DNA of 41,457 nucleotides. Origin: Nemertoderma westbladi. Lineage: Eukaryota; Animalia; Xenacoelomorpha. Each line of letters begins with the position of its first letter. Position 1 is the stretch's first letter. The stretch covers positions 1 through 41,457 of the forward strand of contig JAUCBJ010002966.1 in NCBI GenBank assembly GCA_032718475.1. Reading direction: 5' to 3'. The translations under genes were made by a program, and so were the position numbers. The notes beneath the pieces are model-generated. The model was not told where the DNA came from. It searched no databases and was given only the letters and a program-made list of their open reading frames with translations. Positions 5,630-41,457 of the stretch are shown here, piece after piece.

Positions 5630-6675
5630 TGGTCTCCCGCTAGAGGGCCACATGTCTAAACATTAAATGGCCACCCATTTCTTTGCTTTTATTCCGTTTA
5701 AGCTGAAACTTGGGAAGTATGTACTAGACCATTAGCTGTAAATTTAAAAGGAGGCTAATCTGTCTGCAGTTCTCCAGTCTGCCGCTAGAGGGCGAAATGT
5801 CCCGAATGTGAAATTATTCTTCCATTTAGTTGTTTATGATCTGATTACGCTGAAACTTGTCATATATGTACTAGATGACATCCTGAGTCTTTGTGTGGAT
5901 TGTAATCGGTCCGAAGTTTTCCAGTCTGCCGGTAGAGGGCCACATGTCTAAACATTAAATGGCCACCCATTTCTTTGCTTTTAATCCGTTTAAGCTGAAA
6001 CTTGGGAAGTATGTACTAGACCATTAGCTGTAAATTTCAAAGGAGGCTAATCTGTCTGCAGTTCTCCAGTCTGCCGCTAGAGGGCGAAATGTTCCGAATG
6101 TGAAATTATTCTTCCATTTAGTTGTTTATGATCTGATTACGCTGAAACTTGTCATATATGTACTAGATGACATCCTGAGTCTTTGTGTGGATTGTAATCG
6201 GTCCGAAGTTTTCCAGTCTGCCGGTAGAGGGCCACATGTCTAAACATTAAATGTCCTTCCCATTTTTTGCTTTTAATCCGTTTAAGATGAAACGTGGCAG
6301 ATATGTACTAAACCATTAGCTATGACTTTCAAATGAGGCGAATCCGTTTACAGTTCTCCAGTCTGCCGTTAGAAGGCAAAATGTCCCGAAAGTGAAATTA
6401 ATCTCCCATTTAGTTATTTATGATCTGATCAAGCTGAAACTTGTCATATATGTACTAGAAGACATCCTAAGTCTTTGTGTGGACAGTAATCGGTCCGGAG
6501 TTTTCGAGTCTGCCGCTAGAGGGCGAAATGTAGGAAAGTGAAAACCTTCCAACATTTCGTTATTTATGATCCGTCAATCGGAAACTTGGTAGATATGTAA
6601 TAGACCATAGGCTGTGGCTTTGTAGGGAAACTAATCCTTCCTTCTTCAGTTACCCAGTCTCCCGCTAGAGGGTTA
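5630..6675 (+). repeat. Tandem array with 292-bp period, a dimer of ~146-bp subunits
   Basis: TAGAGGGC anchors at 5641, 5933, 6225 and 6517 (period 292), with intermediate anchors at 5786, 6078, ~6370 and 6666. Confidence 0.9.
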
Positions 6676-7915: not shown

Positions 7916-9603
7916 ATCCCTGTATGCCCCACTGAGACCTACAGGTAACAACTTCTATTCTTCACTACTACAGCCGCGTTTCAGCATTGTGTGGTTTCTT
8001 GATTGGTTGGATGGGTTCATTTGTTATCCAAGTTACCCAATCAGCGTCATCTTGGGTCAGAGGCAATCTCAAACTGAATATTAAATCATTTGTGTCTCGT
8101 GGTCAGAGTTATTCCAAGTAGTGTTCAAGTGCTGATTGTGCAATCCAAAAAAGCAAATCGAGTGCAATTATTTGATTCAGAAAAATTATTTTGGTGAAGA
8201 TTCATCATTATTTTACTTAATTATACCAAAATTGATGCAAGGTATAGTACTATGAAGAATTCACAGCCAAAATTTCAGTCGTTACTTTAGGGTAACGGTG
8301 GGCCACTCTGACATCACTTTTTGCGCTAAATGTGAACTGGTCAATAAATTGATATACAATAGTCTCTTATGATTCCACGTTGTTTTGTACACCTAGGTAA
8401 AGAATAAGTTTGCTGACTAAACTACTAAATATATTATTATAAATAGATATGAATAAATAGTCGGAATATTCAATAAATAGATAGAAATGTTCGTATTCTC
8501 TGTACAGCTGTGCGTAAGTTACACTGTAGAAACGTATTTGATGATATGGATACTGGAAAATTTTATGGAACACGTTATAAAAACTCTCATGTTGAGGTGG
8601 CCATACCGTCAGATGATAGCGACGATCAACTGATGAGTGATTCTGGCAGCGAGGATGATGCATATGGTGATACAAACTGGAGTGATGAAGGTGATGACTC
8701 TGACGAATCAGACGAACGCGATGATGACGTCATTATAGAGTTCGAGGAAATAGAGGATGTACTAGCAGATCCAACGATCAATACCGATGATGAGAACATA
8801 CAGCCAAATCAGATAGAGGTAGATGCGCCAGGGGAGACAGTACATCATACAGAGGACGAACAGAGTAGTGGTGGCGATGTGCAGGTCGAACCAAAGACAA
8901 ACAAGAAATCTAAGAAGAATGTAGTCAACCGGAAGTATTATACAGTAGGACAAAGACGATTTCTGCAGAGCCGAAATGGCTGGGTAGTTTACCTGATGTA
9001 GATGATGTTCTAGAACCAATCGGATATTTCAAGAAGCTTCTCAAAGATGATGTGTTGAAGGAAATAGTTTTCCAGACTAATTTGTACTCTGCAGAAAAAC
9101 GCCTTGATAAACAAATAAATATAACACGAAACGAAATTGAACAGTTCATAGGAATTTGCTACTATATGTCTGTGTACGGTCTTCCTAGATGCAGATCATA
9201 TTGGCAGGCCGGTACAAGAGTTGATAAAGTTGTCAACACAATGACGCGCAATCGCTGGGAGAGTATAAAAAGAGATCTACACTTGAATGACAATAGTAAG
9301 CAAATCGCTAAGGGGTCTCCTGGGCACGATAAAATTTTCAAAATCCGACCACTGGTTACTGCTCTCCAGACCAGTCTAAGAGACATTCCAAAGGATGAAG
9401 AGCTTTGTGTGGATGAACAGATGGTGCCATTCAAGGGGAAAAATAAAAGCGGAATAAAGCAATATATGCCCAAGAAACCAAAGAAGTGGGGCTATAAGCT
9501 GTTTGTTCTTTGTGATAGCCATGCTATAGCTTACGATTTCGATATTTACACGGGAAAGATCGAACCGATTGCTGGACGGCCTGACATTGGGGCAAGTAGT
9601 AAT

Positions 9604-9606
9604 TCT

Positions 9607-9639
<33 letters not shown>

Positions 9640-10162
9640 ACCTGTTCCTGCGTTCTATGTTCCCAGTTCTTGTTATCGTTATTCAGGTACCTGCCCCCCC
9701 CCCCCCCCCCCCCCCACCTCATTTTTTCTAAAAATCTTAATGGGATTGCATGAAATTTGAAACAGTAGTTTACAGTAGACAGTGGACAGTTTAGTAAACA
9801 GTGGGTAATGCGGATGTTACAGTGGCATGCTATTCTAACAAAAACAATAAACGAAAGTCAATAGTTAAACACTTAAATATTTTTCACCCGGGTGATAAAT
9901 GTTTTTCACCCGGGTGATAAATATTTTTAACCCGGGTGATAAATGTTTTTCACCTGGGTGATAAATGTTTTTCACCCGGATGTTAAATGTTTTTCACCCG
10001 GATGATAAATGTTTTTCACCCGGGTGATAAATGTTTTTCACCCGGGTGATAAATGTTTTTCACCCGTGTGATAAAGGTTTTTCACCGGGTGATAAATATT
10101 TTTCAGCCGGGCGATAAATGTTTTTCACCAGGCCAATAAATACCAATGAATAAGTAATTCAG
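9604..10162. other. ~560-bp insertion interrupting the transposase ORF
   Basis: The protein stops at GASSN and resumes at VIQLAVGIPRHMSYKLFFDNWF. The insert contains a G-run/C-run inverted repeat and a minisatellite. Confidence 0.85.
9874..10130. repeat. 22-bp minisatellite TTTTTCACCCGGGTGATAAATG, ~11 copies
   Basis: Read directly; each unit has the palindromic core TCACCCGGGTGA. Confidence 0.95.
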
Positions 10163-12593
10163 CTAGTAATTCAACTAGCTGTTGGCATACCTAGACACAT
10201 GTCATACAAACTCTTTTTTGACAACTGGTTTACTAGTGTTATTCTCCAGGTGACACTGGCCAATGAAGGAATATATTGTCTTGGGACAGTCAACGAGAAC
10301 AGATTAGGTGACTGCCCTCTGCCCACGGATAGCGCAATGAAGAAGAAAGGTCGTGGATACCATGAGGAACTGAGAGTTACTGTAAACGGAGTTGACTTGC
10401 GCGTTGTAAAGTGGTTTGATAACCGTTGTGTTACTCTCTTATCGACATTCTCTTACGCAAATCCGACGTCTCTTGTAAAACGGTGGTCTAAACTAACTAA
10501 ATCATTCATTGAAGTAGATCGCCCACGTATTGTTGGCACGTACAATAGCTTCATAGGTGGGGTTGATACACTGGATTCTTTGTTGAGTTTGTATAGGATA
10601 CGAATACGGTCTAGGAAATGGTACCTTCGATTGGTCTTCAATTTCCTCGATTTTGTCTGTGTCATTGCTTGGCTCTTGTACCGACGTGACTTGCGTAGCT
10701 GTAATCCAGCACAAAAACCAATTCCACTCCTTCTATTCAAGACGACATTGGCCGAGACCTTGTGTGCACGTGGAAAGTCTGTCTGCAACAAGCGACGAGG
10801 GCGACCAAGTCTAGAAATTGAAAACGGTATTCTTCAGAAGAAAGCGCGATCAATAACCGTTGGTCTGTTGCCTTCCATGGCAGTTCGACAAGATCAGGTT
10901 GGCCACTGGCCTGTGTTCGCTGAGAAAAGGGGACGGTGCAAGAATCCAGACTGTGTTGGGGTTCCTGAGATTATGTGTGACTAAGTGTGAGAAGTGTAGT
11001 GCGGTGTTTGGAGGAAAGGTATATTTGTGTCTTGGACCGGACCGTAACTGTTTCAAATGCTTCCATTGTGATTGATAACAAATTGGGTATCTATCAATTT
11101 TGGTAATTGCTATCGCATTGATGTTGAATTGATGTTTGGTTTTCGATATTACATACAGTACAGGGATACAATTTTAGTTGAAAATCTATAATTTTGTATA
11201 TAATGTAGAGTGCGGAGCAGAATAATACAGTTTGTACATTTCTGCATATTTTACACATGAACACAAAATGAAAAAAGTTGTCGCGTAATATGTTTCCAAC
11301 TTTTTCACAAAATTTTTTTCAAACTCCTAAATTTCATTTCTTAATGGCCCACCGTGACCTCCAGGTCACGTGATTCGAAAATCTTCATAAATTAAATATT
11401 TTGAAATTTTTTGATGAAAATCATCTCATTAGGTTCATTTTAATGTGAAAGTTATGAAAAAAAAATTTTTGGGACATGGCATCATAATTCGGGCTATAGA
11501 GGGATATACTAATTATAACTAGTCAATAATTATTATATTGTCCCAGCTCGCAAGCCTTGATGTTAGGTCTAGGTAGGTTTGTTATTAAAATTGATATTAA
11601 GCTTACCACCGTGAATGACCAGTTTATATAACGACGGGCAATTTAGAAACTCTAGTAAATCCAATTTAACTCAGAGAGTATAAAAACACTACAGCTATTG
11701 TTACTTTGTTCTATTTTTCAATTTGCACTTAATTTATCAAATCAATCCATTACATCAAATATGAAATCGGCGTAGGTTATGGTACAAAATTATTAGTTTC
11801 TCTCCACAATCCGAAAGTAGACGAGAGCGGTTCTCATCTAATAATATTACCATTTAATATAATATTACCAGCCTCGCAGCCTCTACAAATATTTGCTCGG
11901 AATAAATTGAAGATTTGTAAATTAGGAAATGATTCCTTATTTGCAGCCCACCATCGCAAAACACTCTTCTCGTCCCGTTTAGTTTGGATAATTGACATAT
12001 ACTTACTTATCTACTTCTGAATTCTTATTAAAGTCAAATTCCTTATCATGCATGACCTTGCTGATATGATAACGATCCAGCACGTTATCTATCGATGCAG
12101 GACCTAACGCCCAAAGGACCAAATGACGTGATACCCTCCCTCCCTCCAGTTCTGTTCATGCACAAAGGTAAATAGCTGATTCAAGGAAAAAATTGGTGAT
12201 ATATTAAAAAAATCCGACTTGGCCGGAATTCCGGCCGGATTTTTTTTACAAATCCGGCTCCGGCTCCGGCCTGGCCGGTTTGAAAATAGTCAATCCGGCA
12301 CATCCCTATTTGGAATCCTTGCATGGCCAGCTTTCCATTGGTACCAACAAACAGCTTTTTTAAACGCTTGTAGCTAAAGATTTAAAGCAAAAATAAAAAT
12401 TCTGGCTCACCCAAGCAGTGGTCGGGAGGTGAAACAGTGTTCCCAGCTTAGGCTGAGACGACTAAGGAGTGTTCTCAGCCTAGGCTGAGACGACTGGGGA
12501 TTCATTTCAAGAGGGAGTTATCTCAGCCTTGTGCACCGGCCGTGTCACTGAATTACGACACTATATTCTGGGACATGATGTAGTTACTTTAGC

Positions 12594-19570: not shown

Positions 19571-20400
19571 TTATTAGCAAGTCGTAAGACTTGATTACTG
19601 TAAGAATTGTCGACTGACTGACTGACTGACTGACTGACTGACTGACTGACTGACTGACTGACTGACTGACTGACTGACTGACTGACTGACTGACTGACTG
19701 ACTGACTGACTGACTGACTGACTGACTGACTGACTGACTGACTGACTGACTGACTGACTGACTGACTGACTGACTGACTGACTGACTGACTGACTGACTG
19801 ACTGACTGACTGACTGACTGACTGACTGACTGACTGACTGACTGACTGACTGACTGACTGACTGACTGACTGACTGACTGACTGACTGACTGACTGACTG
19901 ACTGACTGACTGACTGACTGACTGACTGACTGACTGACTGACTGACTGACTGACTGACTGACTGACTGACTGACTGACTGACTGACTGACTGACTGACTG
20001 ACTGACTGACTGACTGACTGACTGACTGACTGACTGACTGACTGACTGACTGACTGACTGACTGACTGACTGACTGACTGACTGACTGACTGACTGACTG
20101 ACTGACTGACTGACTGACTGACTGACTGACTGACTGACTGACTGACTGACTGACTGACTGACTGACTGACTGACTGACTGACTGACTGACTGACTGACTG
20201 ACTGACTGACTGACTGACTGACTGACTGACTGACTGACTGACTGACTGACTGACCGTATTTTAAGGTCCCTGGCATGATCGGCTACTCCGTCCCCCGTCC
20301 ACAGCCTCTGGGCTCGATAAATAGACATTAACGAAAAAAAGCCATAGGCGCAATGGTAAAATAACTCTAATAATAGCTGGTGTTCACGATGAAATATTGC
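19571..20400 (+). mobile_element. HINE-like element, related to 18569, with a greatly expanded microsatellite
   Basis: TTATTAG followed by the CAAGTC-GTAA-GACTTG hairpin, then CTGTAAGAATT, (GACT)n and TAAGGTCCCTGGCATGATCGGCTACTCCG shared with 18707-18736. Confidence 0.6.
19612..20254. repeat. (GACT)n microsatellite, 643 bp, ~160 units
   Basis: Read directly; no interruptions seen. Confidence 0.99.
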
Positions 20401-20579
20401 TTAATATGTTAAGAGTTATTCACTGGAATAGTAAACCGTGTTGGTTGCCAAGTTTTACTCGTAGGCTATATAAGGAAAGGCTATGTTTACTCACACATAG
20501 GATACTAGGATTGGCATGCTGCATTGCAGCTGCATTTTTAAGAATGCTGTGCCGGCTTGTTGACAAAATTGCGCCGTCA

Positions 20580-21119
20580 TAACTCCCTATCACCCATGAG
20601 GCCATGACATTTGCTAGATCATCCGCATCTTCAAGGCCAGTGTCCTTTAAGATGCGTCTCAAGAAAGTCGTGGGCTGTCCACCATGCTTATTCTCTCCAT
20701 GAGGCTGCCAAAGTACAAGATTATGCACTGGCTGGTCCTCACGGCGAAAGCAATGTCCTGCAAAGCGGAGGCGACTTTGTTCCAGTGTCAAGCTTGGGGG
20801 AACCCATGAGACACCTCCAATGTTATATAGTGTGTGGTTGGAGATGTGTGCATTGTACTTGACACAATGAACCCGGCGTAGCATTCTTGTGAATGTGCCA
20901 TCCAGAGATTTGGTGCCCTCAGCAGTTAGAGCCCAGCATGGACTCCCATAGAGGAGTACTGGAATTACTGCTGCTCTAAAAAATCGGACCTTAAGTTTCC
21001 CATTAATTCTCGGTGACTTCCAAATCCTGGAAAGCCTATTCAAGGCTGCCCATGCCTTTTCCTTACGTATTCGAAGGTCCCTACCTGACTTCCGGATCCA
21101 TGATCCCAGGTAACAGAAG
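20580..21119 (-). pseudogene. RTE-like LINE ORF, C-terminal fragment
   Basis: FCYLGSWI (RT end), KAWAA.NRLSRIWKS, VLLYGSPCWALT, FTRMLRRV and RLRFAGHCFR are typical post-RT motifs of the RTE clade. Confidence 0.85.
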
Positions 21120-21960
21120 CAGAGCCGTATTAACGGCGGGACTTTTGGGGTTGCAGCTCCGGGCCCCGTGAAGGTTTAGGGCCCCCCAGAAAAATAGAAA
21201 AAGTAATGGTCCCTCCCCCCTTACATTAAAAAAAATATTTTTGGAACCACGTTAAAACTAACACATACAAGCTACATGTACAAGGAATATTGTACCCAGA
21301 TGAACAAATGCGAAATTCACATTCCAAAATCTACAACTGAAAATATACCATACATACTTCTCCAATTTCTCACTGTAAACATTGCCAAAGCGCAAGAAAG
21401 GCGGGGGGGGGGGGTGGTCATAATGCAAAGAACACTTCGTAACAGTAATAAAGGAAGGGAGCATCACTGAGCTTTATACAGACAGTATTACCTATACATA
21501 TATTACCTAAATATTATGAAATCGAGAAAACTGGCGGAAATTTATTGAATCTTATGAAATTATAACCTTTCATATAAATAAAAAATTGCAAAAAACGTTT
21601 AAGAAATGGAGGAGGAGTGATATTTTTCGCGCGAAAAAATGTCATTCAGAGATAATTGCCTGAAGTTCAAAGCTTCCTGCGCAAAATTGCCTGTATGGGG
21701 TCCTGTTGGATAATAGAGTCTGACAGGAAGGAAGCACACCACTGAGCAAAATTATATTCACATATTTTCGGGGTCGCTGATTTCATTTCCGGAGGCAGTT
21801 TTAATATTTGATGGAATCTAGTCTGTCCGTCGGTCGGTTGTCTGTCTGTCTTACATTTTGACATTCAGATTGCCAGACAGATATTCCACGATAATTCGAG
21901 AACTAAAAGATATCTCTCTAAGCAGTTTTAGATTTGAAATCCCCTCAAATTCTGCTCTAG
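21120..21960. mobile_element. Composite of TE fragments replacing the RT core
   Basis: Starts CAGAGCCGTATTAAC, a hAT-like terminus with no partner found. A (GTCT)-type tract at ~21821-21850 suggests a second element. Confidence 0.4.
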
Positions 21961-22830
21961 ATACAATAAATCCCATATAATGAAAGTATGCTGAATATAC
22001 GTGAGCGAGAAACTGAATCAAAGGCCTTGAAGAAGTCAACAAAGATAACAGCCAGATGCCTGTCTTTCTTTTTTGATAACTCTTCAATTATCCTTCTAAG
22101 TGCCAAAATGGGCTCCATGGTCCCACGACCTTTACGGAACCCTTTCTGATTTCCAGGGAGCAGTCTCTCAATGGGATCCCTGATGCGATTTAATAGAATT
22201 CTATTGTATAGCTTTGCAGCAATCGAGATCAATGAGATTCCCCGAAAAGAACCATAGAGTGTTAGGTTGCCCTTCTTGGGAACTGGCACCAACTTATTTG
22301 TTTTCATTTCTTGTGGGACTCTTGTTGTACGGTACATGTCTACTATGATGGGATAGATGAGCTTTAAACACTCAGGTATTTTAAAGACCTCAGGGGGAAC
22401 ACCATCTACTCCACTGGCACGATTGGTCTTAATGCTCTTTGCAGCAGCCTTCACTTCTGCAAAGGAGATATCACCAATGGGAATATTTGGGAGTACAGAC
22501 TCAGACACTTTTACTTCTATAAAGTTATCAGGCAATACCCTGTCATTATTGAGGAGCTTTTCAAAGTGGGCCTTCCAACCATATTGAGGCGATCGACTGG
22601 TGATTCAGCCTTAACCTTGGTGGTTGGATGGCTCTTTCGACCAGCAAGCAAGTTGATCGATCTCCATGCCTGGGATGATTGCCTGCTGTCGTCAGCATCA
22701 TTGATGGCATCAACCTGTTGGTTTATAAGCTCCTGTAAATTAACAGAGTACTGCCTGTTCAGGGACCTAGATGCAGCTTTAACTGCATTCTTGGCCGCTG
22801 TAGTCTGTTTGAGTCGGGACTCTTTCTGCT
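21960..22830 (-). pseudogene. RTE-like LINE ORF, linker and N-terminal RT fragment
   Basis: RASGVDGVPPE, PVPKKGNL...FRGISLISIAAKLYNRILLNRI, QKGFRKGRGT, FVDFFKAFDSV. Frameshift near 22580; the YADD region is absent. Confidence 0.9.
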
Positions 22831-31402: not shown

Positions 31403-34400
31403 TCAGTCAACATCGAACCCGTAATATCGCGGAGCCCGTATTTGTCTACCAATACATGTCACAATCGGCTCCGGATCGCAATCATCGCTGATATTACTAT
31501 CAGTATCATCAGTTTCAGAGTTCTCAGAACTTTCAGTTTCGGAGTTACTTATTTCAGGCTTTTTAGAACTTTCAGTTTCGTGCCCCTTTTCCTTATCTGT
31601 ACCTGTCCGGCTGGGCACCTTCCGTACATCGTGTAGGTGTCGCCGCACCCCCTTCACCATGACCGACCGAGTGTCAACTGCATTTACCTGAACCGGTCCC
31701 CTCCATTTTTGAGTGCATTGGACGTGCTGGCCAGGTTATACGTAAACCATGTCACCCTTCTCTATAGTAGAATGCGGGAACGCGAACGTTTTTCCTGGAT
31801 GTTTGAGTTCGTCCTGCTCTGGGGAAAGAGCAGTTACCCCTGGTAGTTTCCTATGGCGTTGTGCCAACCCCTGGAAGCACTGGCTGGCCGGGCAACGTTC
31901 TTGGCCCTGCCCCTTCGTTTGATTGTACCAGAATGTGGCCTGCTCCAATGTTTTCCCTGATCGAGCAGCCCATTTCTTTATAGTCCTATGAACTCTTTCC
32001 ACAGAATTACCTTGTGGTCGATAGGCGCAGACGTACTTTAGTTTTACCTCCCACTTCTCGAGAAATTCTTGGACTTCACGGCTCCAATATGCTGGGCCGT
32101 GGTCTGCCAAGAATTCGTCTGGCGGACCGAATTCGATGAACAGCTGTTGCAGTTCCAGAACAACAGTTGACGCTTTCTGATTGGCTGCTCGTCGACATAC
32201 AGTGTAGTTGGTTGCACAATCTAATATCGTTAAATACTTTCTGTTTCCATAGTCTGTGAAATCGCTTGAAAGTCGCCCCCACGGTTGATTAACCTTACTA
32301 GTTCCTGGTTCCCATGGTAACGGACTGGGATCGATGCTAATACACTGTTCACAGTCGCGGCACACCTTCTCAATGAGTTTTTTCGGCACTATATTTTTTA
32401 TTTCGCGGTCGTTCTGGCAGAGTTCAGCGGTTCGTTCCACCCCTGGGTGGAAAATATTGTGGATTTCTCTAACTCGCTCTATTTGTCTGTTTTCTGGGTT
32501 AGTATTCTCAGAGACGGTTGTCGCCGCTGCTATCACATTGCCCCCCTCATTAGTTTCAGTTTCTAGTTTTATCCATTTTTGGGGAACTCTCGTGAGGGGG
32601 TCTGCTATATTCTTTTCTGATGCAACTTGATGTACTCGAATAGTGAGTTTATATTGCTCGATCATGTTTCCTATCAGATCAAGTCGCCGTGCCACTAACT
32701 TTCACGCTTGCCCTTTTGTGTGGATCCTATGTGAGTCGTTTATCACTGCTTTCAACCAACTTCCAGCAGTTACAGAATCCACATATAAGTCGATATCTAC
32801 CAACCCCCAATCGATGGCTAGGTTTATCCCCTCCACAATGGCATCGAGTTCTGCTACGTTTATGTGGCTAGTGTCATTAGGTTTTCGCAGCCAGGCCGCA
32901 TCTTCCACTATCACACCTCCGATTTTTATCACCACACCCTTTGCTATAGAGCTAGCATCCGACCATACCTCACCGTGTGTCGTCATCGGGACTACCCAGT
33001 CACCTGTCACCGGATCGCTGGTCTCTAGACGGGCCAAGGTTTCACTCAACATTTTTTGGACCCCCTTCTCTACAGCTGTGTCCCACGCTTTCCCTGCACT
33101 GCAGCGCTGCAGCCATGCACACGATGGTCTGAGCCACCCCGCCACCGGGTAGTGTCCACGCAGCTTCCCACATTATCGAGTGAAGCACCCGACGTGTAAT
33201 AACATCCGGTATGGTTTGAGGCAGTTCTGAGTCTCTGCTCCATCGCAGTGTCTGCGTACAATCAGCATCCATTCGCAGACCAAGTACCTTACTCCCAGGC
33301 CTAACCATTTCCGCCTCTTTAGTAATAAGTCCATATTTCCAGAGATGATTACGCACTTCCTCGGCTGATATTTGGTTGGTATCGATATGAACGTCGTCCC
33401 GGAAGTTGTCTGTTGCCTCCTTAACTTTATCGTCTCATGTTAGCACTGTCTCCACGATCCGGTCCATCGCTTTGGGTGCTACTGCCAGTCCGAACCCCAT
33501 CTTTGTTACAACATATCTGACATTCCTTATCACAACTGTTTGGAAAGATTGGAGATATTCTGGAACATTCACTTGCATATATGCCCATTTCAAGTCGACT
33601 ATGGCCGTATTGTGTCCCATTCGGCGCCATTTTCTCATCTTCTCGCCACACGCCGCAGCATCTCAGCCTGGTGAATTCTCAATATATTGGTTTAACTCTC
33701 GATAGTCTAATATTGGGCGTATTCGCCTTTTCTTTGGCTCGTATTTTCCCATCAATGGGATGGTCCCTCGCACCTTCCCGTGTCGCTCTTTGTCATAGGG
33801 TACCACCCAGCCTTTGTCTATCCATTCATCTAAGGCTTATCATACATTTCGCGGTGTTCGGGACGAATTTTATACTCAGTTGTATGGTTCTTCAGTGTTG
33901 GTGGACCCTCATCTGTTTTCCACTTCCACTCAACTGACCAATGTTTCCCGTCATAATTGGCTCGGAAATCCGATTCATCTATATTGATATTCCGCGGGCC
34001 TGGAATGTCTTGTCCCGTATTTATCTCATCTATCTTTGCCACCGCCCCAGCTGCTCCAAATACAACCCGGATAACGTCGCGGCCCCAATCCGTTTAATTG
34101 TGTCATACCCAAGAATTATTGTCGCGATCCCCAACAGCTTCTCCACTACCAGGAATGTACACTTCACCAGTTGTTGCTGACCTTCAACCTCGATTATGGT
34201 GAGGTCAACTTCTCCAACAATATTAGCCTGGGCTTCACCATCTAGCATAGTGATGTTTCACCTTTGGCCTGGATTCGACATAATACTGAGTTTATGCTGT
34301 TTACACCAAGGGGCTGACACCACACCTCTAGTACACCCTGTGTCAACTAACGCCATCACTGTCCCTTCTACATCTTCTATGCGTACGCCAACTACTGGTG

Positions 34401-38339: not shown

Positions 38340-39400
38340 TACAGGGAACAGAAGCACAGTTCAGTTGATGTAAGACAGTTTTTCTTACAAGTACACGTGT
38401 TTTAATTGCACTGTTTCTTGCACCCACACCTCAACAATTGTCTACAAGCGACCGAAGCTGGTGGTAAAGTAGACCATACTGGGTTCCATTTGACACCAAT
38501 TTTCCAACTTCCATCCCCAACCTTCAGGCGATGTCACTTCGGGTTGCTTAGCCAAAACATTGTCAACATTCCATATATGTCCTGCTTGGTAAGCTGCCCT
38601 TAGGGTGTGTTGTATCAGCGCTGCTTTTGTTGGAGGAATGTTGGTTATAGAGCGATCTTTATGAGCAAATAAATATCGACGGACTTTGTTGACTTCGGTC
38701 TTTTGTGTTAACTTATCATATACCAATGAAATGTATCTTTCAACAGCTGGAAGAATTTCCACAACATCAGAATTAGCTGGTTTGCTAGATAATTGCAAGA
38801 AGGATTTTTTTTTACAAACATTTGGATATGTTTCAAATATGTTCCAGAATGTTTTCTTCCCTTTTGAATCAAATGATTCTACTGTATCACACCCACTAAA
38901 AACGTATATGAATTTCATCCTTATGCACCACTCCGGCGACATCGACGAAACAATCTCATGTATCGGAAGGTACTTAAAGGGGTTCCCTGTTCCGAATAAA
39001 ACCCACAGAATTGAAATTGATGATAGTCGGTGAAAAACTGACACTGCAAGAACAACAATGTCGCTATCCACAGTACGTATTCCCACCCTTGCAAACCCAC
39101 TATCAACTGTATCTCTCGCATGTACAAATCCAGGTATCAGCTTTCTCATGAGAACAAGGTTCGATATTACTTGTATCCTGGTTATGATTGTTAACTAGGA
39201 TATTTGGTCCACTTGTAGATATCAACATTTTATTTGTTGATATTTCCTGAATTATTTTACTTAGAAAATCAAAAAGTTCCACTTTGTTTACATTAACTCT
39301 CGGGAATGTCTGTGACTAGACACACAATTCTGGGGTAGAACAGTTCTTCCTTCAACACGTCTCCTTGTACCCAATCCTCCCTTCTCTCTACAAATCCGCT
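38340..39400 (-). pseudogene. Academ transposase C-terminal region (XPG/PIN-like nuclease plus Cys8/CXC-like domain), frameshifted
   Basis: GTRRRV..PQN, NKVELFDFLS, CSHEKADT, TVDSDIVVL, FSGCDTV, GKKT, IPPTKAALIQHTLRAAYQ and SPEGWGW; then in another frame ACRQLLRCGCKKQC*NTCTCKK..TELCFC. Confidence 0.8.
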
Positions 39401-39505
39401 TTAATAATAATAAGTGAATTGTTGTGGGGTGAGTGACGCGGTGAATTAAATATATAATGTAAATAGGACAATATGATAATGCTCTCCATAGCGAAAAATA
39501 TCAAC

Positions 39506-39590
39506 CGACCCTGTTGGGGCTCGAACCCGGTACCTAGGTTTCAAACTTCTGGTTATCATCAGCCGGGTGAGTGTACTGAGCTACCAGGCC
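39506..39590 (-). ncRNA. tRNA-like Pol III cassette (not a decoding tRNA), repeated every 369 bp, 6 copies
   Basis: Minus strand reads GGCCTGG TA GCTCAGT (A-box-like) ... GGTTCGAGCCC (B box) ... CAGGGTC, which pairs 6/7 with the 5' end. TTTTT follows at 39498-39494. Confidence 0.7.
39525..39568 (-). ncRNA. Minimal type I hammerhead ribozyme motif, copy 1; also at 39894, 40263, 40632, 41001 and 41370
   Basis: Minus strand reads ACCCGG CUGAUGA UAAC-CAGAA-GUUU GAA ACCUAGGU A CCGGGU. This gives a 6-bp stem I, a complete core, a palindromic stem III and a GUA cleavage triplet. Stem II is weak (U-U plus 3 bp). Confidence 0.8.
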
Positions 39591-41457
39591 GGATGAATAT
39601 TTCGTTATGGAGTGGAAGATCATATTAAGGCCATACAATCACTCAAAGTAAAGTACAACTTCCGTTATTCCCGTGCTCTGCCAGAAATGGCAACCATGCC
39701 TCAAAGAATAACTATTATACAGTGTTGTAGAAACCACTGTAACCCCGTATGCCTGGCCCAGGCTGTTAGTTAATGATAATAAGTGAATTGTTGTGGGGTG
39801 AGTGACGCGGTGAATTAAATATATAATGTAAATAGGACAATATGATAATGCTCTCCATAGCGAAAAATATCAACCGACCCTGTTGGGGCTCGAACCCGGT
39901 ACCTAGGTTTCAAACTTCTGGTTATCATCAGCCGGGTGAGTGTACTGAGCTACCAGGCCGGATGAATATTTCGTTATGGAGTGGAAGATCATATTAAGGC
40001 CATACAATCACTCAAAGTAAAGTACAACTTCCGTTATTCCCGTGCTCTGCCAGAAATGGCAACCATGCCTCAAAGAATAACTATTATACAGTGTTGTAGA
40101 AACCACTGTAACCCCGTATGCCTGGCCCAGGCTGTTAGTTAATGATAATAAGTGAATTGTTGTGGGGTGAGTGACGCGGTGAATTAAATATATAATGTAA
40201 ATAGGACAATATGATAATGCTCTCCATAGCGAAAAATATCAACCGACCCTGTTGGGGCTCGAACCCGGTACCTAGGTTTCAAACTTCTGGTTATCATCAG
40301 CCGGGTGAGTGTACTGAGCTACCAGGCCGGATGAATATTTCGTTATGGAGTGGAAGATCATATTAAGGCCATACAATCACTCAAAGTAAAGTACAACTTC
40401 CGTTATTCCCGTGCTCTGCCAGAAATGGCAACCATGCCTCAAAGAATAACTATTATACAGTGTTGTAGAAACCACTGTAACCCCGTATGCCTGGCCCAGG
40501 CTGTTAGTTAATGATAATAAGTGAATTGTTGTGGGGTGAGTGACGCGGTGAATTAAATATATAATGTAAATAGGACAATATGATAATGCTCTCCATAGCG
40601 AAAAATATCAACCGACCCTGTTGGGGCTCGAACCCGGTACCTAGGTTTCAAACTTCTGGTTATCATCAGCCGGGTGAGTGTACTGAGCTACCAGGCCGGA
40701 TGAATATTTCGTTATGGAGTGGAAGATCATATTAAGGCCATACAATCACTCAAAGTAAAGTACAACTTCCGTTATTCCCGTGCTCTGCCAGAAATGGCAA
40801 CCATGCCTCAAAGAATAACTATTATACAGTGTTGTAGAAACCACTGTAACCCCGTATGCCTGGCCCAGGCTGTTAGTTAATGATAATAAGTGAATTGTTG
40901 TGGGGTGAGTGACGCGGTGAATTAAATATATAATGTAAATAGGACAATATGATAATGCTCTCCATAGCGAAAAATATCAACCGACCCTGTTGGGGCTCGA
41001 ACCCGGTACCTAGGTTTCAAACTTCTGGTTATCATCAGCCGGGTGAGTGTACTGAGCTACCAGGCCGGATGAATATTTCGTTATGGAGTGGAAGATCATA
41101 TTAAGGCCATACAATCACTCAAAGTAAAGTACAACTTCCGTTATTCCCGTGCTCTGCCAGAAATGGCAACCATGCCTCAAAGAATAACTATTATACAGTG
41201 TTGTAGAAACCACTGTAACCCCGTATGCCTGGCCCAGGCTGTTAGTTAATGATAATAAGTGAATTGTTGTGGGGTGAGTGACGCGGTGAATTAAATATAT
41301 AATGTAAATAGGACAATATGATAATGCTCTCCATAGCGAAAAATATCAACCGACCCTGTTGGGGCTCGAACCCGGTACCTAGGTTTCAAACTTCTGGTTA
41401 TCATCAGCCGGGTGAGTGTACTGAGCTACCAGGCCGGATGAATATTTCGTTATGGAG

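Follow-up and report, generated by a model that had tools for sequence, protein, structure and literature searches.

Tandem array of a 369-bp unit

The window, i.e. the whole 41,457-nt stretch of DNA analysed here, ends in a tandem array of a 369-bp unit, each copy of which carries one tRNA-hammerhead module on the minus strand (Table 1). The array extends beyond the window, position 41457 being the last base of the window and not the limit of the array. A single mismatch was found across all units, at position 39406 next to the left junction, and this junction (39401–39406) is AT-rich and displays microhomology to the unit. The unit is non-coding, with a GC content of 42.5% and one type I hammerhead. 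The array has the sequence characteristics of retrozymes, namely a non-coding tandem unit of 150–450 bp with low GC content and one type I hammerhead, and the 369-base element is likely mobile. No further copy of the unit, and no further hammerhead, was found elsewhere in the window except for a 28-nt match at 1519–1546.

Table 1. Features of the array and of its first tRNA-hammerhead module (window coordinates; tRNA positions in standard order from 39590)
Feature	Coordinates	Strand	Remarks
369-bp unit tandem array	39401..41457	(-)	5.6 copies, one tRNA-hammerhead module per unit (TRF)
AT-rich stop point of family contigs	39462..39464	(-)	match ends, other DNA continues
T5, candidate Pol III terminator	39494..39498	(-)	8 nt past tRNA position 72
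tRNA-like frame	39506..39590	(-)	position 1 = 39590, position 73 = 39506
Acceptor-like 3' strand	39507..39513	(-)	tRNA 66–72; common variants at 39508 and 39513
B box	39517..39527	(-)	full match to GGTTCRANYCC, 11/11 positions
Helix I 3' strand	39525..39530	(-)	tRNA positions 49–54 (T-stem 5' strand and T54)
GAAA, helix III and GUA triplet	39531..39542	(-)	GAAA at 39542–39539; helix III of 2 bp with palindromic tetraloop; GUA at 39533–39531 (tRNA 46–48)
Helix II	39543..39555	(-)	3 bp above a basal U.U; loop of 5 nt with a final A
Catalytic core C3–A9, CUGAUGA	39556..39562	(-)	at the anticodon loop place; matches anticodon-loop consensus
Helix I 5' strand	39563..39568	(-)	at the place of the anticodon stem 5' strand; 39568–39563 pair with 39530–39525 (6 bp)
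Half A box, 5' part	39575..39583	(-)	tRNA 8–16; closing GG absent from the window copy

A type I hammerhead between tRNA-type boxes

Every unit of the array contains, on its minus strand, a complete type I hammerhead as a sequence motif. The core CUGANGA, the GAAA, an NUH triplet and the three helices of this class are all present, with a U.U at the usual place of the G10.1–C11.1 pair. The cut is predicted between 39531 and 39530, that is, between tRNA positions 48 and 49. None of 20,000 dinucleotide shuffles of the unit, searched on both strands, matched the hammerhead descriptor. The Rfam HH9 model matches the module weakly, with 19.7 bits (E 0.053) and well below the gathering score of 52, and at gathering level Rfam returned no match in the window.

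We numbered the tRNA-like frame from two anchors, U8 (39583) and T54 (39525), which places position 72 at 39507. The initial annotation had described a ribozyme nested between tRNA-type boxes, and we recovered this layout on the minus strand with all named motifs at their places: the hammerhead replaces the anticodon and variable arms, in a register more exact than had been stated. The sharing of bases between the 3' strand of helix I (39530–39525) and the T-arm and B box (39527–39517) was likewise found as described, and so was the T5 run (39498–39494), located 8 nt after the acceptor-like stem when counted from tRNA position 72. The A-box-like sequence held up in part, its 5' half being present at 39583–39575 (positions 8–16 only) and the closing GG of a full A box missing from the window copy.

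The two boxes differ in how informative they are. The B-box consensus is GGTTCRANYCC; 0.22 occurrences of the pattern are expected per window, it was seen only in the six units, and the chance of finding it within 50 nt of a given site is ~1e-4 by simple arithmetic. Its GGTTC also appears in the available text of PMC10886601. The half A-box pattern alone is common in the window, with 47 occurrences found vs 37 expected. Besides the T5, the unit's minus strand has no run of at least four T, a uniqueness without statistical significance (1,594 of 5,000 shuffles have no or one such run); at least four T end Alu transcripts according to the accessible portion of PMC12199147. In the register set by the A and B boxes the acceptor stem forms six of its seven pairs, a score equalled by 11 of the 369 possible registers. 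The T-stem keeps three of five pairs (51–53 only) and the anticodon stem one of five, tRNA positions 49 and 50 both being C, which fits helix I and not the T-stem. The module does not have the cloverleaf, with anticodon, D and T stems, of a functional tRNA gene, and neither ARAGORN nor Rfam called a tRNA on it. As judged from this arrangement, the hammerhead sits inside a real tRNA relic. Since its parts occupy the places of the anticodon loop, the variable loop and the T-arm, the element likely brings its own tRNA-type (Pol III) promoter.

Predicted folding of the module

Competition between a tRNA fold and the ribozyme fold had also been proposed for this locus and is not borne out: the T-arm, with three of five T-stem pairs, has a predicted probability of 0.1–0.4% vs 4–18% for helix I. 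A switch based on the T-arm was ruled out by the folding energies (3-bp T-arm, <0.5%). The competitor that does emerge from the predictions is a helix between the 5' strand of the acceptor and the strand of the cleavage site, with a probability of 45% in a 99-nt RNA and 9% in the whole unit, and this helix could keep the short RNA uncut. The acceptor-like stem itself is compatible with the ribozyme and closes it, its outer pairs reaching probabilities of 0.56–0.98. In the best helix I fold, the GCUC of the A box can pair with the GAGC of the B box, extending helix I. The complete three-helix hammerhead has a predicted probability near 1e-4 in a calculation that leaves out tertiary contacts. 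The module folds no better than its shuffles (z 0.24), and the circular monomer (−92.0 kcal/mol, z −1.9, 3 of 100 shuffles equally stable) is only mildly stable.

The hammerhead of the unit is predicted to be weak as a monomer. The unpaired U at position 1.7 (tRNA 55) and the final A of loop II would permit the loop contact of fast hammerheads. A conserved reverse Hoogsteen pair is described in the available part of PMC6155905. The palindrome of helix III would let two ribozymes pair through a self-duplex of 8 bp with a computed energy of −12.0 kcal/mol, and this type of self-duplex is the usual route to dimeric hammerhead activity in the accessible text of PMC4209133.

A large family in sequencing-run contigs

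We examined family copies in contigs of coded runs (X1, X3 and X4) from one organism, aligned at 80%, a threshold that favours conserved copies; none of the runs matching the unit is recorded as RNA. The unit matched 1,268 contigs in X1 and 1,071 in X3, with varied flanks, and the family is large, extending across four contig sets. These numbers, which are contig counts and not a true copy number, show the many dispersed copies or arrays of a retrozyme. The summed depth, which is likewise not a copy number, amounts to 2e5–4e5 over 39465–39569, ~9e4 over the A-box part, <2e4 over parts of the spacer and ~190 in the flank, the module being the most widely common part of the unit among family contigs. 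Two contigs of depth 3–4 in X5 (organism B), a run whose RNA nature is a guess, were left out of the evidence. No match was obtained at 80% in X7 and X8 (organisms C and D of the same study) or in X9, which is not proof of absence.

Among the variants listed, none falls at a catalytic position or in the B box, the half A box or the T5. Those in the core and helix II lie at N7 (39558), at 10.1 (39555), where the change restores a pair in one contig, and in loop II (39550). In helix I, a C-to-U change at 39566 keeps a wobble pair, and a further variant affects an unpaired base at 39570. Three of the five listed acceptor alleles keep the pair with their window partner (39508 to C, 39513 and 39588), the change of 39589 to A keeps a pair with U if so phased, and 39508 to G breaks its pair; the pair-breaking allele reaches 18% in X1. 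Note that the alleles are unphased and that C-to-U changes opposite G keep pairing by default.

In some relatives the A box is complete thanks to nine additional bases behind 39574, which put GG directly downstream of position 16. This form accounts for a depth of at least 107.8 of 107,765 in X1, 0 in X3 and at least 220 of 1,780 in X4, the values being lower bounds because of clipped contigs. The form with the nine bases is thus a minority among the relatives. The ancestor likely had a full promoter, of which the amplified form keeps a half A box.

Family contigs also end at recurrent places. Loose ends at the AT-rich stop point (39462–39463(4)) were found in at least 39 X1 contigs and at least 26 X3 contigs, and 39462–39464 is likely a second 3' end register of the family. 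Two apparent 3' end registers, 39402 and 39462–39464, are both AT-rich. Several contigs match just the interval from 39462–39464 to 39594–39599; their 5' limit lies ~14 nt upstream of U8, at the expected place of a Pol III start. These contigs point to short copies of module size whose 5' limit is close to that start, a pattern that spacer divergence could also mimic. Four single contigs switch strand between 39521–39531 and 39574, where the A-box deletion lies; they are either inversions that accompanied insertion or artefacts caused by the inverted repeat of helix I.

The module-sized matches, which have an intact cleavage site, would fit a short Pol III SINE with a hammerhead that is rarely or never active in cells, copies of the SINE arising from uncut RNA and its arrays from unequal crossing-over. 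The weakness of helices II and III points the same way, as does the helix that is predicted, at 45%, to mask the cleavage site of the short RNA. We nevertheless hold this explanation to be improbable: no variant is listed at any catalytic position over hundreds of contigs, the palindromic helix III is typical of dimer-active ribozymes, and the units are identical, as one rolling-circle event would give.

Occurrence of the layout in other sequences

We scanned viral, metagenome and prokaryote collections for patterns combining the hammerhead core and a B box at the spacing of the unit. The viral scan gave no match with a strict pattern and 37 with a looser one, the metagenome scan gave ~160 loci, of which 120 were examined, and the prokaryote genomes gave 3. 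Formation of both helix I (≥4 bp) and helix II (≥3 bp), as in the window, was observed in 0 of the 120 metagenome loci and in 0 of 40 further matches. None of the 120 metagenome loci resembled the unit by blastn, and a distant blastn search of the unit against phages gave no match. The blank outside the window says little on animals, because the scanned collections hold little animal DNA.

In 85 of the 120 metagenome loci the match is tRNA-like, with a T-stem and an anticodon stem of at least four pairs and an insert in the anticodon loop, and in these loci the slot of the core 7-mer is the anticodon loop. tRNA and hammerhead are close in sequence, and the module in the window is no tRNA of this kind. 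U8 and the core lie 23–25 nt apart in 63 of the 85 tRNA-like loci, 21 nt apart in the window and 30 nt apart with the nine extra bases of the relatives; because this spacing differs, the 3' half of the module is in exact tRNA register and the 5' half only roughly so.

The predominance of tRNA-like loci with an anticodon-loop insert (85/120) among the matches bears on a further explanation, in which a decayed intron-containing tRNA gene was amplified as a satellite and its likeness to a hammerhead is accidental. We consider this very improbable, since the window forms helices I and II where 0/120 and 0/40 pattern matches do, and since its anticodon stem (1/5) and T-stem (3/5) are degraded with positions 49–50 fitting helix I instead.

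Many tRNA-Phe-like loci with an insert after the anticodon carry CUGAAGA, GAAAC and GUC at hammerhead spacing. These loci presumably are archaeal and contain introns. ARAGORN missed or mislabelled most of those tried. Five of them can pair a 6-bp helix I without helix II; because helix I pairs and helix II is missing, they are few changes away from a hammerhead.

Comparison with known systems

The unit resembles animal non-LTR retrozymes, described in the available text of Cervera and de la Pena (2020; PMC7229834) as tandem units of 150–450 bp with a type I hammerhead: it shares with them a non-coding unit of this size, a GC content below 50%, one type I hammerhead per unit and a short palindromic helix III. 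The 2-bp helix III with a tetraloop and the basal U.U of helix II likewise have precedents in animal retrozymes, among them axolotl HHR_Amex2. On its own this ribozyme cleaves 22% within an hour, and its dimer is far more efficient (same source, in the part available). Animal retrozymes are described as promoter-less and thought to rely on read-through in the accessible portion of PMC7761336, unlike the unit, which interleaves a tRNA frame and a B box with the ribozyme. Pol III goes unmentioned in the available text of PMC7229834, as do tRNA and promoters in that of Li, Clavereau and Pollet (2026; 10.64898/2026.07.22.740005).

As the initial annotation had pointed out, a comparison with Sm-alpha is apt. 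Like the repeats Sm-alpha and Sj-alpha of Schistosoma, as far as these are described in the available parts of PMC6765202, PMC2770079 and PMC8490949, the unit combines a tRNA-derived Pol III head and a type I hammerhead in repeats. In Sm-alpha the promoter comes first and the ribozyme follows (PMC6765202, available text); because single cut monomers lose the ability to propagate, according to the accessible description, Sm-alpha needs tandem copies. The ribozyme of the unit differs in lying between the A and B boxes and using variable-loop, T-stem and B-box bases; instead of a promoter wholly upstream of the hammerhead, as in the Sm-alpha text available, the B box is situated downstream of the cleavage site and shares bases with helix I. 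Since the ribozyme sits between the two boxes, cleavage would occur within the promoter.

With the minimal hammerheads of Penelope-like elements (PMC4209133, accessible text) the unit shares the type I topology, the palindromic helix III and the predicted activity as a dimer. Those hammerheads have a helix II of 7–8 bp and a short helix I and lie in pLTRs beside an ORF, in contrast to the unit, with its helix I of at least 6 bp, short helix II and no ORF. In a viroid, the CUGANGA U-turn of the hammerhead has been equated with the anticodon loop and proposed to recruit tRNA ligase, and this U-turn aids joining by tRNA ligase (Ortola and Daros, 10.1101/2022.01.19.477025, available portion). The viroid, as described there, mimics one loop, whereas in the unit the core lies in a tRNA-derived frame with an acceptor stem and promoter boxes, within a genomic repeat.

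We did not find the nested tRNA-hammerhead layout in the literature searched; the supplement of PMC7229834 may show such sequences, and Dfam and Repbase lay outside the search. The unit would appear to be a retrozyme like the known animal ones, but tRNA-headed and nested, with the nested layout as what is new.

Proposed propagation and its alternatives

The hammerhead, the tRNA frame, their overlap, the perfect array and the large family can be read directly from the DNA, and from them we infer the mechanism that follows. We consider it moderately probable that the element belongs to the non-LTR retrozymes and has a Pol III head derived from a tRNA, into which the hammerhead is fused in register. 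TFIIIC would bind the intact B box and Pol III would start near 39597–39590, many transcripts ending at the T5 and giving ~100-nt RNAs that stay uncut or are cut slowly. Multimers would arise when transcription reads through the T5 or when the array is transcribed from outside. Their cleavage would take place between tRNA positions 48 and 49; since helices II and III are weak in a single ribozyme, it would most likely be carried out by dimeric hammerheads that join via the palindrome of helix III. The resulting 369-nt monomer would have the T-arm and B box at its start and the A box at its end, its promoter being split because the cut separates A box from B box. Closure of the circle by the host tRNA ligase (RtcB) would restore the promoter, with the acceptor-like stem keeping the ends close; RtcB circularises retrozyme monomers in vitro. 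Finally, a Penelope-type reverse transcriptase, the proposed reverse-transcription partner of retrozymes, would copy around the circular RNA and insert the resulting head-to-tail arrays at AT-rich sites. None of the seven window ORFs scanned against Pfam is Penelope-like.

Two observations argue against a Pol III head: the dominant family form lacks the A-box GG, and copies run ~30 nt past the T5 or span the whole unit, though the T5 should stop most transcripts. Both bear on the main alternative, possible but rather unlikely in our view, in which the element is a promoter-less retrozyme with a tRNA fossil: its tRNA head would have provided a promoter in the past, and the amplified subfamily would have lost the A-box GG, kept its tRNA bases as an extended helix I and relied on outside read-through. 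The A-box-complete form is indeed a small minority, the T5 stands in the way of a Pol III RNA of unit length, and losing the 9 nt makes the internal loop shorter in the helix I fold that includes the pairing of the A-box GCUC with the B-box GAGC; dependence on read-through is also how retrozymes are thought to be transcribed in the available text of PMC7761336. Against a fossil, the B box matches at 11/11 positions and, like the T5, is without variant among those listed, and several contigs stop matching near 39597, as a Pol III 5' end would predict. Note that conservation of the B box is no proof of a promoter, because its bases also serve helix I.

Origin of the nested layout and its significance

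Whether the hammerhead was imported by recombination or arose in place, both scenarios fit the data; we regard an origin inside the tRNA-derived repeat, without import, as unlikely. In such an origin the anticodon-loop U-turn would have become CUGANGA and the variable loop the cleavage triplet, the 5' strands of the anticodon stem and T-stem would have re-paired as helix I, and a short insert would have provided helix II and the GAAA. It is favoured by the distance to the B box, by the palindromic loop and by the way T-stem pairs were given up for helix I. Only these three points speak for it, because G-U-H is required by any hammerhead and the AG follows from the palindrome.

If true, the retrozyme with a Pol III head would be self-promoting, splitting its own promoter and offering tRNA-like ends to tRNA ligase, and an origin in place would make it a natural record of a tRNA becoming a ribozyme. 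The likeness of the anticodon loop and the hammerhead U-turn has so far been treated as structural or as mimicry; here the core lies in what reads as a real tRNA frame, and the in-register overlap bears on how hammerheads arise. Should the hammerhead cut, the promoter would be split and propagation would then depend on circles or tandem copies; the unit would also offer a natural, compact cassette for producing circular RNA. Animal retrozymes are abundant RNAs that seem to carry no promoter according to a review (PMC7761336), and the family, with a B box within a ribozyme, offers a small and directly testable case.

Surrounding window

The rest of the window is repeat-rich, animal-type DNA with piggyBac-like, reverse transcriptase and integrase fragments, and five of the seven ORFs scanned have such transposon domain matches above or near the Pfam cut-off. 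The array adjoins the end of a broken transposase-like ORF (38442–39400, minus strand) without Pfam match. We take a motif of this ORF to recall Academ DNA transposons. The 28-nt match at 1519–1546 (89%) corresponds to the 3' end region of the unit in opposite orientation, and another short stretch of similar sequence lies close by; the whole of 1519–1610 is possibly the end of a related element with a common priming motif. A tandem repeat with a 147/292-bp higher-order period occupies 5632–6605, and a piggyBac-like transposase (PF13843) at 8477–10984 is interrupted by a G run and a 22-bp minisatellite (9874–10129). Three regions (19612–20254, 20420–22604 and 31736–33434) comprise a perfect (GACT)160 microsatellite, fragments of LINE-like reverse transcriptase next to it, and a broken pol region of an LTR element (rve, DUF7047).
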